A DNA stretch of 64,000 nt from UHGV virus genome UHGV-1455077, one strand, 5' to 3'. Under the pieces are notes generated by a model, which made no database searches, was not told the origin of the DNA, and saw only the letters and a list, made by a program, of their open reading frames with translations. The DNA comes from a virus. Positions 32,578-34,238 of this stretch are shown in pieces. The first letter of the stretch is position 1; every line of letters begins with the position of its first letter. Position numbers and translations under genes: made by a program.

Positions 32578-33102
32578 ATGTATATTAATAAAAAGGATTA
32601 TACGGGAGAATCCGCAAGAATGGGGCAAACTGCCGAAGATTTGTTTGAAAATTGGCTTAAAGAACACCAACGAAAGTATCGTAAAGCAACATTATCTGAA
32701 CAATATAAACATATTGATTTTATCATTAATAGTGAAAAGCTCAATAAAGATATTAAAATAGATGTAAAGGCTTCCAAAAAAGTTAATAGAAATGATACAT
32801 CAACAAATAATGATATATTATGGGTTGAATTTAAAAATGTTCAAGGAAAAAATGGTTGGCTATATGGAGAAAATGATTATATAGCTTTTCATAAATCAGA
32901 TGAAAATTGTTTTTATTTAGTAGAAACACAAGAATTAGCAAAGGTTTGTGAAAATATTTGCAATCAAGGAATTGCATTATATTCTAAAGATGCATTATAT
33001 CATAGATATACACGAAAAGGCAGAAAAGATGAATTATCAATGATATATTTTGATGATTTGAAAAAATGTAATTATACAATTATAAAATTAGGAGAAAATT
33101 AA
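32578..33102 (+). CDS. Hypothetical protein (possible nuclease-like fold)
   Basis: 174 aa; HIDFII...IDVKASK weakly PD-(D/E)xK-like. Confidence 0.4.
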   Translation: MYINKKDYTGESARMGQTAEDLFENWLKEHQRKYRKATLSEQYKHIDFIINSEKLNKDIKIDVKASKKVNRNDTSTNNDILWVEFKNVQGKNGWLYGENDYIAFHKSDENCFYLVETQELAKVCENICNQGIALYSKDALYHRYTRKGRKDELSMIYFDDLKKCNYTIIKLGEN

Positions 33103-34238
33103 TGACTCAAATAAGAGATAGTGTGGAATTGGATTTTTGTGATGTATTGTTTAGACCTAAACGAACAACATTAAATTCACGTAGTGAAGCGGATATAATT
33201 AGAGAATATAAATTTAAATACTATCCAAAAACAATTAAATCTTGTGGAATTATGGCGGCAAATATGGCAACCACAGGAACTTTTAAAATGAATGATGTTT
33301 TGCAAAAATATAAAGCATTTACTTGTTTGCATAAACATTACAAAGAAACAGAATTGCGTTCATATATGGCAACTAATTATATGGATGATGATTCAGAATA
33401 TAATTCTTTTACTTTTATTTCTACTGGATTAAAAGATGATAAAGAAAAGGTGTTTAGTTATTTAGAATCTGGAACACAAATTGATAAAATTTGTATTGAT
33501 ATTGCTAATGGTTATATACCAAAATTAATTGAATTTGTTCGTGAAGTTAGAAATAAATTTCCAAGTTCATTAATTATGGTTGGTAATGTTGTTACTGGTG
33601 ATATGACACAAGATTTAATTCTTAATGGTGCAGATATTGTTAAAGTTGGAATTGGGCCTGGTTCAGTTTGTACCACACGTAAATTAACAGGTGTTGGAAG
33701 ACCGCAGTTATCTGCAATTTTAGAATGTGCTGATGCCGCACACGGTGTAGGTGGATTAATTTGTGCTGACGGTGGTTGTACTTGTGCTGGTGATGTTGCA
33801 AAAGCATTTGGTGCTGGTGCAGATTTTGTAATGATTGGTGGAATGTTTGCAGGTACAGATGAATCTGCTGGAGAATTAATTACTAAATGTTATAAATCTA
33901 ATGAAATACTTCCATCAGGTTATGATGAATATGATGAACCTATTTTTGATGAACCAAGATATAAATTTGAAATTAAACAATTTAAACAATTTTATGGTAT
34001 GTCATCTCAATTAGCACAAGAAAAACATTGGGGTGGAATGGCAAAATACAGAGCTTCTGAAGGTAAAGTTGTTGAAGTTCCGTATAAAGGTTCAGTTGAA
34101 AATGTTATTCAGGAAATTCAAGGCGGCTTGAGAAGTACAATGTCTTATATTGGAGCTAAAAGATTAAAAGACATTCCGAAGTGTACTACTTTTTACCGAG
34201 TAAGCAGACAATTGAATGAAGTATTTGGAAAAAGTTAG
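33102..34238 (+). CDS. guaC: GMP reductase (GuaC/IMPDH family, no CBS domains)
   Basis: [50 protein letters not shown] closely parallel bacterial GuaC; 378 aa. Confidence 0.8.
   Translation: [378 protein letters not shown]

Follow-up and report, generated by a model that had tools for sequence, protein, structure and literature searches.

A predicted GMP reductase gene within the gp47-gp46 nuclease gene string of an AT-rich jumbo phage from human-gut metagenomes

Our analysis of a 64,000-nucleotide stretch of viral DNA (UHGV virus genome UHGV-1455077; hereafter, the window) indicates that the gene guaC encodes a conventional NADPH-dependent GMP reductase, which probably serves this AT-rich phage as an auxiliary nucleotide-salvage gene, shifting the purine pool from G to A. 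We assign this reading a probability of about 0.65. The predicted activity of the enzyme is the NADPH-dependent reductive deamination of GMP (GMP + NADPH -> IMP + NH3 + NADP+); the rebalancing of the pool and the use of the host PurA and PurB are inferred. The following features of the window are relevant here:

233-2371, minus strand: nrdD, anaerobic (class III) ribonucleotide reductase (Pfam NRDD)
2404-2919, minus strand: nrdG, radical-SAM activase of NrdD (Pfam Fer4_12 and Radical_SAM)
3038-3448, minus strand: NUDIX hydrolase of 136 aa (Pfam NUDIX, intact Nudix box)
9147-9821, plus strand: thyX, flavin-dependent thymidylate synthase (Pfam Thy1)
31490-32515, plus strand: T4 gp47-like (Mre11/SbcD-type) nuclease subunit, opening the guaC string (Pfam Metallophos, E 1.3e-7; 29% identity to NCTC12673 gp47)
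32578-33102, plus strand: p174, an ORF of 174 aa; its stop and the start of guaC overlap (TAATG)
33102-34238, plus strand: guaC, predicted type-1 GMP reductase of 378 aa (NF003470, alignment to human GMPR2, dN/dS)
34249-34521, plus strand: p90, an ORF of 90 aa, 10 nt 3' of guaC, preceded by a separate GGAG ribosome-binding site
34603-36723, plus strand: T4 gp46-like (Rad50/SbcC-type) nuclease ATPase subunit (phrog_77, SbcC-like, E 5.5e-95; matches NCTC12673 gp46)

The ORF called on the window runs from ATG to stop, and its product was identified as a type-1 GMP reductase (GuaC/GMPR). Pfam revealed an IMPDH/GMP-reductase domain (E 4.6e-65) and no CBS (Bateman) domain at E <= 0.01, and the NCBIfam model NF003470 "GMP reductase" matched residues 3-377 with 489.3 bits (cut-off 397). 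The models for IMP dehydrogenase and GuaB1 gave 108-185 bits, far short of their cut-offs of 481-779; by these scores, the protein is not an IMP dehydrogenase. The cut-off of the older model TIGR01305 was missed (434 versus 492 bits) because a 27-aa insertion splits the match in two, a length effect that leaves the motifs in place. Among solved structures the nearest are human GMPR2 (E 1e-118; 55% identity over 346 aligned residues) and GMPR1 (E 1e-114), and identity amounts to 48% with Salmonella GuaC (tblastn) and to 54-56% with three other bacterial GuaC proteins (pairwise alignment). The earlier note on this DNA had described a GuaC homologue of 378 aa that has the catalytic core but lacks CBS domains; the motifs it quoted were found, and that description holds.

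The catalytic residues Cys190, Thr192 and Glu320 align to Cys186, Thr188 and Glu289 of human GMPR2. The GMP-binding set of GMPR2 (Ser184; Asp219-Gly-Gly, which contacts the ribose OH; the GGM phosphate loop; Met269-Ser270; Arg286/Ser288/Gly290) is kept in full, the ribose-binding residue of the phage protein being Asp223. The YGMSS and YRASEG motifs are present, and Cys/Thr/Glu, Asp-Gly-Gly, GMSS and RASEG are invariant across 25 phage and bacterial sequences. Judged by its sequence, the protein is a real, intact GMP reductase in which every catalytic and GMP-binding residue is retained. Two insertions were observed, a lineage-specific loop of 27 aa (residues 263-289) and a shorter one of 5 aa (residues 95-99). 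The former, placed by sequence alignment to the solved GMPR2, follows the equivalent of GMPR2 Arg258 in a turn that joins two β-strands, and both its length and its sequence are hypervariable; as it also occurs in the nearest orthologues from bacteria, this loop is no innovation of the phage. An AlphaFold2 model built with 25 close homologues (mean pLDDT 58, pTM 0.62) was too poor for use.

The gene has an AGGAG ribosome-binding site, and no terminator-like site was found on the plus strand. Its upstream neighbour p174 showed a weak match, below the cut-off, to the restriction-endonuclease family RE_MjaI of Pfam (E 0.0018) and a PD-(D/E)XK-like motif "IDVK" read by eye, with no match in PHROG; it is 84-86% conserved in the relatives L090 and L091 and missing from L027. 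The downstream p90 had no match in Pfam or PHROG and is limited to some close relatives. guaC lies between gp47 and gp46 in all relatives with gp46 at least 51% identical (the low-GC jumbo clade), and it is absent from this position in 30 more distant T4-like contigs; its stable placement inside the gp47/gp46 operon marks the phage clade. Among phage copies that are 72-88% identical, dN/dS was 0.11-0.29. The gene is under purifying selection and its position is conserved.

The closest relatives outside phages are chromosomal GuaC proteins from metagenome-assembled genomes of gut and rumen Alphaproteobacteria, with 74-79% identity. In a neighbour-joining tree the bacterial sequences form a clade (197/200 bootstraps) that branches within the phage diversity (171/200 and 155/200), so the transfer could have run in either direction. 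The bacterial loci with the closest GuaC have a GC content of 31-41%, and the phage gene, at 31.6%, is intermediate between the phage and bacterial values. Both this composition and the very close kinship would be expected of a recently captured host gene without adaptive role. We consider such a neutral passenger highly improbable, given that the position was kept while gp46 diverged to 51% and GuaC to 54-58% identity, that dN/dS is 0.1-0.3, and that many unrelated viral contigs carry a GuaC (190 confirmed matches in IMG/VR). No loss or pseudogenisation of guaC was seen in close relatives.

Proteins identical to those of the window occur on human-gut metagenome contigs of 288-291 kb, and the source is a T4-related jumbo phage of ~289 kb that is recurrent in human-gut metagenomes. 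A megablast search with 8 kb around guaC against 50,697 phage records gave no match; therefore, the lineage was inferred from proteins. At E < 1e-4, nine of the 67 ORFs of the window had a counterpart in NCTC12673 or in the first 50 kb of CP220 (19-43% identity); for two further ORFs the match was at E 8e-5 to 8e-4. All of these are generic T4-like core genes. By this protein evidence, the window is unrelated to Firehammervirus and to the Eucampyvirinae and does not come from a Campylobacter phage. The earlier note had remarked that traits reported for CP220-like phages fit this window; a lineage of that kind has to be given up, and an unrelated lineage was also what that note had named as speaking against its proposal. 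The hosts are likely gut Alphaproteobacteria, as tentatively suggested by one exchanged gene (guaC) and a common under-representation of GATC and CATG. For an abundant, uncultured gut jumbo phage of ~289 kb, the near-identity to GuaC of gut Alphaproteobacteria provides a testable host hypothesis.

According to the proposed role, guaC would be expressed from the gp47-p174-guaC-p90-gp46 string, alongside the nuclease for recombination and host-DNA breakdown. Surplus guanine nucleotides from host RNA and pools would be turned into IMP by the phage GuaC, and IMP into AMP by the host PurA and PurB; after phosphorylation, the phage class III NrdDG would then deliver dATP. This supply would match a genome that needs about three A/T per G/C (75% AT; the GC content of the window is 25.1%), and thyX may be the pyrimidine-side counterpart in supplying it. 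Both nrdDG and thyX, as companion nucleotide genes, lie within the window as well. Neither purA nor purB was detected by Pfam among the genes called in the window and its two 10-kb flanks (84 kb of the ~289-kb genome), and the step from IMP to AMP would therefore rest on the host. If the hosts have a GC content of 31-41%, the mismatch with the present phage would be modest.

GMP reductases are also annotated in Xanthomonas phages XacN1 and Xoo-sp13, Stenotrophomonas phages RAS14/CM1 and Caulobacter phage Cr30; in Cr30 the gene lies near those for thymidylate synthase, ribonucleotide reductase and dCMP deaminase. The sampled regions of XacN1, RAS14 and Cr30 have GC contents of 49.5, 43 and 38%, and the hosts of these phages have ~65-67%; these isolates are thus much more AT-rich than their hosts, a comparison of three phages without a control set. 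A GMP reductase has further been mentioned in a deep-ocean pelagimyophage group (PMC7029224). Apart from that mention, the literature search returned nothing useful on phage GuaC function or on deoxyinosine together with GMP reductase in phages, and no biochemical characterisation of phage GMP reductases was found in the searched literature. As purine-salvage GMP reductases of phages have already been listed, the present gene is one more besides those of XacN1, Xoo-sp13, RAS14 and Cr30 and changes little.

GMP reductase catalyses an effectively irreversible reaction that reduces the guanylate pool. The gene could accordingly serve host takeover or counter-defence, with GMP, and hence GTP, being drained at the expense of translation, transcription, (p)ppGpp or c-di-GMP signalling or GTP-dependent defence, and not for phage DNA synthesis. 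The surroundings of guaC include genes for recombination nucleases, DNA methyltransferases and RNA ligase, with adjoining ART-PolyVal toxin-domain genes, and an HD_4 (ppGpp-hydrolase-like) ORF is located ~9 kb past the end of the window; both would suit such a function. We nevertheless regard it as unlikely, since the phage itself needs GTP and dGTP and the sequence bears no sign of deregulation.

The location of guaC suggests another alternative, in which the enzyme also accepts dGMP from nuclease-degraded host DNA, so that dIMP and then dAMP would be formed, bypassing ribonucleotides. In T4, gp46/47 are required for the breakdown of host DNA to mononucleotides; guaC is embedded between the corresponding genes and is translationally coupled to p174, a possible nuclease ORF. 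The ribose-binding site, however, is unchanged relative to bacterial GuaC. We know of no enzyme that turns dIMP into dAMP, and no PurA/PurZ-like gene was present in the 84 kb inspected; to our knowledge, direct salvage of dG to dA has not been described in any system. Searching the literature for activity of GMP reductase on dGMP gave no relevant result. This deoxynucleotide salvage appears very unlikely, and the broader formulation, in which dIMP derived from degraded host DNA is either aminated to dAMP or, after phosphorylation, incorporated as deoxyinosine (dI) in virion DNA, is very improbable as well.

The earlier note had gone further, proposing that GuaC converts (d)GMP to (d)IMP for use in DNA synthesis, so that dI would replace dG in virion DNA, with dGTP being cleared by the NUDIX hydrolase; incorporation would proceed via dITP. 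The NUDIX ORF is genuine (PF00293, 49.4 bits against a cut-off of 21.1, E 5.9e-13) and has an intact Nudix box (GX5EX7REUXEEXGU) reading GKVHHDEFLLEGLEREIEEEIGF; as that note had stated, it is next to nrdDG, being located immediately 5' of nrdG and nrdD in the same orientation. Its assignment as a dGTP-clearing pyrophosphatase found no support in the comparison with other sequences: no substrate-specific NCBIfam model was reached, the best matches (PRK08999 Nudix family hydrolase, a pyrimidine (d)NTP diphosphatase model, NudI and MutT) scoring 17-28 bits against cut-offs of 95-300, and its relatives in the PDB have mixed specificity at E of at least 3e-6. The homologues in GAP32 and PA5oct reside within a tail/neck (structural) module, away from nucleotide genes. 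A conserved NUDIX-nrd linkage was considered and ruled out, as it is not kept in either phage. The NUDIX hydrolase is a member of a generic jumbo-phage family; it is 30 kb from guaC on the opposite strand, and no evidence links the two.

According to PMC8306585 and PMC10516641, which both cite Crippen 2019, the DNA of Firehammervirus (CP220/CPt10) carries dADG, and the phages with dI are Fletchervirus NCTC12673, NCTC12669 and F336. The statement that Firehammervirus replaces dG with dI is therefore reversed with respect to these sources. In the complete genome of NCTC12673 there is no homologue of GuaC/IMPDH (best tblastn E 2.5) or of the NUDIX hydrolase (best E 7.9), and no such annotation; the known dI DNA is thus not made via GuaC. 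A tblastn search with GuaC matched 72 records of the phage collection, with no Campylobacter phage among the ten commonest organism names or among the best 40 of the 72 records. The absence of GuaC from Firehammervirus rests on this collection-wide search, CP220 itself having been compared over its first 50 kb.

Several features would nonetheless agree with dI in the present phage: the product of GuaC is a hypoxanthine nucleotide, an NTP reductase is encoded by the phage itself, its genome is AT-rich and T4-related as in Campylobacter phages, and assemblies cannot exclude dI, because sequencers read it as G. GATC and CATG sites are both absent from the window. Restriction-site avoidance was dropped as a test against dI, since the dI phage NCTC12673 (ACGT, 2 observed versus 58 expected) and the dADG phage CP220 (CATG, 4 versus 79) also purge particular sites and avoidance does not discriminate. 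With a known dI phage lacking both genes, the dI attribution belonging to another genus in the cited sources, an unrelated lineage, an active site identical to that of chromosomal bacterial GuaC down to the Asp that binds the ribose 2'/3'-OH, and a NUDIX hydrolase that has no dGTP-specific signature and is remote from guaC, we consider a dI genome made by GuaC extremely improbable. If the enzyme did turn out to act on dGMP, or the DNA to contain dI, hypoxanthine DNA, still unexplained in Fletchervirus, would for the first time be given an enzymology.

Overall, the conventional GMP reductase proposed here resembles the cellular type-1 enzymes (E. coli and Salmonella GuaC, human GMPR1 and GMPR2; NF003470, TIGR01305) in its TIM-barrel IMPDH/GMPR domain without CBS, its Cys/Thr/Glu catalytic set and its GMP-binding motifs, and differs in being phage-encoded and in carrying the 27-aa and 5-aa insertions. 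The alphaproteobacterial proteins (e.g., P0097, L169, L018 and L023) are of similar size (372-375 aa) and share the loop insertion and the active-site stretch, but their genes, unlike the phage copy, have housekeeping surroundings on the chromosome (AsmA, ribosomal protein L17, DinB, glycogen enzymes, DXP synthase). The enzymes of XacN1, Xoo-sp13, RAS14/CM1 and Cr30 belong to the same family, and their carriers are T4-related or jumbo myophages; at 35-41% identity to the present GuaC and without the long insertion, they look like separate acquisitions.

Fletchervirus (NCTC12673, NCTC12669, F336) resembles the present phage as an AT-rich (26% GC), T4-related myophage and has generic core genes in common with it (gp46/47, UvsW, gp4; 26-40% identity). 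It nevertheless belongs to a different subfamily, lacks a homologue of GuaC/IMPDH and of this NUDIX hydrolase, and has an ATP-dependent ligase and a class I ribonucleotide reductase, whereas the present phage has an NAD-dependent ligase and a class III reductase. PurZ is strongly diverged from PurA, is deoxynucleotide-specific and is accompanied by dedicated dATP/dGTP-clearing hydrolases. The aminoadenine (Z) genomes that encode it with DatZ/MazZ, reportedly described by Sleiman in 2021, are like the present case in that a phage carries its own copy of an enzyme from the purine pathway of the host. Unlike in those systems, the GuaC described here is near-identical to its bacterial counterpart and has no linked enzyme dedicated to clearing.

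According to our analysis, every sequence criterion tested places the predicted guaC product in the type-1 GMP reductase family.

33102-34238, plus strand: guaC, a 378-aa ORF with an ATG start and all four motifs quoted in the earlier note

An AGGAG ribosome-binding site lies upstream, the preceding 174-aa ORF ends in a TAA that overlaps the ATG (TAATG), and a 90-aa ORF starts 10 nt past the end of the gene. The ORF, its motifs, Pfam and the NCBIfam model NF003470 all agree with the earlier description of a GuaC homologue with the catalytic core and without CBS domains. In the Pfam search, the IMPDH/GMP-reductase domain (E 4.6e-65) was the sole domain and no CBS domain was found; the protein passed NF003470, "GMP reductase" (489 bits vs a cut-off of 397), and scored far under the cut-offs of the NCBIfam models for IMP dehydrogenase and GuaB1. 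It also remained under the cut-off of the older TIGR01305 model (434 vs 492), because an insertion splits the match. The nearest solved structures are human GMPR2 (E 1e-118; 55% identity over 346 aligned positions) and GMPR1 (E 1e-114). Cys190, Thr192 and Glu320 correspond to the catalytic Cys186, Thr188 and Glu289 of GMPR2, and the ribose-binding Asp-Gly-Gly, the phosphate loop, GMSS and RASEG are kept. The phage protein differs from GMPR2 in the extra residues 95-99, which have no counterpart there, and in a 27-residue loop (263-289) in place of the Asp259-Gly260 turn. In two more distant clade members (L184:4083-5348 and L185:4929-6161), GuaC has 410-421 aa, and the insertion at the same position is longer still (about 60-70 residues), with the catalytic motifs retained.

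The gene lies between gp47 and gp46 in every contig with a gp46 at least 51% identical to that of the window (the related phage contigs L181-L185), and has the same placement in the related contig L027 (gp46 58% identical). Since the order gp47-guaC-gp46 is kept even where GuaC identity is down to 54-58%, and pairwise dN/dS among the phage copies is 0.11-0.29, guaC is an old, constrained component of the early region of this clade rather than a recent passenger. No GuaC was found near gp47 and gp46 in 30 T4-like contigs of greater distance, where these two genes are adjacent. We confirmed 190 viral GuaC relatives in IMG/VR, and in three such contigs (L120, L133 and L142) guaC lies 3-4 kb off gp46/47.

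The closest relatives of the phage gene are chromosomal bacterial genes. A scan of GTDB species genomes revealed GuaC proteins of 365-375 aa, 74-78% identical, in many gut and rumen MAGs, labelled in their record titles as Alphaproteobacteria, "Azospirillum sp." or Rhodospirillaceae. With the phage protein, the chromosomal GuaC of L169, L018, L023 and other Alphaproteobacteria MAG loci shares 74-79% identity, and the phage neighbour genes were found at none of these bacterial guaC loci. At one of these loci (P0097), the neighbours are AsmA, ribosomal protein L17, DinB, a glycogen-branching/debranching-type enzyme, aldose epimerase and DXP synthase, and the context is therefore chromosomal. Bacterial and phage GuaC share the long loop, whose length and sequence are hypervariable in either group; a stretch of 47 residues is essentially identical between them, and the catalytic and substrate-binding residues are invariant across 25 phage and bacterial sequences. 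This alignment gave no sign of an altered substrate; in particular, the Asp contacting the ribose hydroxyls is unchanged. The sequence supports the prediction of a conventional GMP reductase.

In a neighbour-joining tree (200 bootstraps), the bacterial proteins formed a single clade (197/200), sister to the phage group of the window (171/200), with the syntenic phage L027 outside both (155/200), L184 and L185 further out, and the entire insertion-bearing group at 200/200. The bacterial clade is thus nested within phage GuaC diversity, which indicates that guaC was exchanged between the phage lineage and gut Alphaproteobacteria, in either direction. This exchange is a clue that would mark gut and rumen Alphaproteobacteria as candidate hosts.

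We propose purine-pool rebalancing as the role of guaC in this phage, a function that we infer beyond what the sequence itself conveys. A genome with 25% GC would demand roughly three A per G; GuaC would turn guanylate irreversibly into IMP, host PurA/PurB would carry IMP to AMP, and once this is phosphorylated, the phage class III reductase NrdDG (233-2919) would yield dATP, while ThyX (9147-9821) would cover the T side. Among phage isolates whose GMP reductase is annotated, the sampled regions have 49.5% GC (XacN1), 43% (RAS14) and 38% (Cr30), and the host genera Xanthomonas, Stenotrophomonas and Caulobacter have about 65-67%. These phages are far AT-richer than their hosts, a pattern that we count as supporting rebalancing; the bacterial loci with the closest GuaC have 31-41% GC vs 25% in the phage. 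No purA or purB was found within the 84 kb inspected (window and flanks), and no enzyme assay of any phage GuaC in the literature searched. About 9 kb past the window end (L173:20127-20834) lies an HD_4-domain ORF resembling RelA/SpoT-type (p)ppGpp hydrolases, which together with GuaC could manipulate guanine-nucleotide signalling. Activity of GuaC on dGMP from host DNA breakdown is highly improbable, the sole pointer to it being the position of guaC inside the gp47-gp46 operon.

The earlier note had suggested that GuaC and a NUDIX hydrolase may feed (d)IMP into DNA synthesis, and had cited Firehammervirus (CP220-like) phages as replacing dG with deoxyinosine. This attribution is reversed: according to two papers, CP220 and CPt10 DNA carries 2'-deoxy-7-amido-7-deazaguanosine at 100%, and deoxyinosine occurs in NCTC12673, NCTC12669 and F336, which are Fletchervirus (Crippen 2019, cited in PMC8306585 and PMC10516641). 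In the full 135-kb NCTC12673 genome, tblastn revealed no homologue of GuaC/IMPDH (best E 2.5) or of the window NUDIX (best E 7.9), and neither is entered in its annotation; the known deoxyinosine DNA therefore arises without GuaC, an enzyme outside any known non-canonical-base pathway. Among 72 phage records matching GuaC, at most two are from Campylobacter phages, and none appeared among the 40 matches listed or the ten most frequent organism names.

3038-3448, minus strand: NUDIX hydrolase with an intact Nudix box, followed immediately on that strand by nrdG and nrdD

The NUDIX ORF beside nrdDG is real, as had been claimed. It belongs to the widespread phage family phrog_1198 (E 1.7e-21), reached no substrate-specific NCBIfam model, and has PDB relatives that differ in specificity (a MutT-related protein, NudI, CTP pyrophosphohydrolase and Dcp2). 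Its closest phage homologues (in GAP32, CBB and the PA5oct group, 41-42% identity) lie just past a gp15-like tail-sheath stabiliser, away from nucleotide genes, and the window copy adjoins a gp13-like neck gene; because of this structural setting, its place next to nrdG looks like chance. NUDIX and guaC are 30 kb apart on opposite strands, and a dGTP-clearing function is pure conjecture.

Megablast and protein matches place the window (25.1% GC) in a lineage unrelated to Firehammervirus, a finding that the earlier note had itself named as refuting its proposal, and the window is no Campylobacter phage. A Megablast search of 50,697 phage records gave no match. The identical GuaC protein occurs on 90 to 127 contigs of up to 289-291 kb, including "Myoviridae sp. 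ctWb16" and metagenome assemblies that we read, from record names, as human-gut cohorts. The ligases closest to the NAD-dependent one of the window come from Xanthomonas, Stenotrophomonas, Agrobacterium and Sinorhizobium jumbo phages (only about 30% identity), and NUDIX is closest to the GAP32, CBB and PA5oct copies. In comparison with NCTC12673 (complete) and CP220 (first 50 kb), only generic T4-like genes matched (19-43% identity): UvsW-like helicase, gp4, gp46, gp47, methylase, ThyX and radical-SAM proteins.

Restriction-site purging is extreme in this abundant gut jumbo phage. GATC (about 150 expected) and CATG (about 200) are absent from the window, as are CCGG, GCGC, CGCG and GATATC; CTAG (7 observed vs 42 expected), TCGA (14 vs 60) and GAATTC (8 vs 32) are depleted. 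Both 10-kb flanks (L172:12140-22139 and L173:13201-21314) likewise lack GATC and CATG; L027 has no GATC, but retains CATG (25 vs 58). Purging also occurs in the deoxyinosine phage NCTC12673 (ACGT, 2 observed vs 58 expected) and in CP220 (CATG, 4 observed vs 79 expected); site avoidance is therefore compatible with full G replacement, and we dropped it as evidence of ordinary G. At the candidate host loci, GATC and CATG are themselves under-represented (observed/expected 0.24-0.41 and 0.45-0.68, respectively), which matches the host hypothesis only loosely. Since the stretch holds no GATC or GATATC, both of its methyltransferases must target other sequences.

36692-37465, plus strand: N6_N4-type DNA methyltransferase
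38109-38885, plus strand: Dam-like (PF02086) DNA methyltransferase

Other genes of the window, in which no tRNA genes were found over its 64 kb, are as follows.

9147-15571, plus strand: thyX and radical-SAM stretch
9878-11224, 12046-13242 and 13220-14401 (the last with a SPASM domain), plus strand: radical-SAM ORFs after thyX
11224-12042 and 14429-15571, plus strand: two ORFs without assigned function, between and after these
26923-28728, minus strand: large ART-PolyVal (ADP-ribosyltransferase toxin-like) ORF
54778-56175, plus strand: large ART-PolyVal ORF
57994-60270, plus strand: ClpB/ClpA-like double-AAA+ protein, 758 aa (phrog_4871, E 4e-193)

The thyX/radical-SAM stretch is a possible cassette for modifying nucleotides or peptides, and CP220 CPT_0023 is matched by two of its three radical-SAM proteins (E about 3e-10). 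The ART-PolyVal ORF on the minus strand is broken into two ORFs in one related contig. GAP32 also has a ClpB/ClpA-like double-AAA+ protein, as does the phage studied here. One published mention of a phage GMP reductase is for a pelagimyophage group (PMC7029224), and several jumbo and T4-like phages already have comparable genes annotated as GMP reductases.
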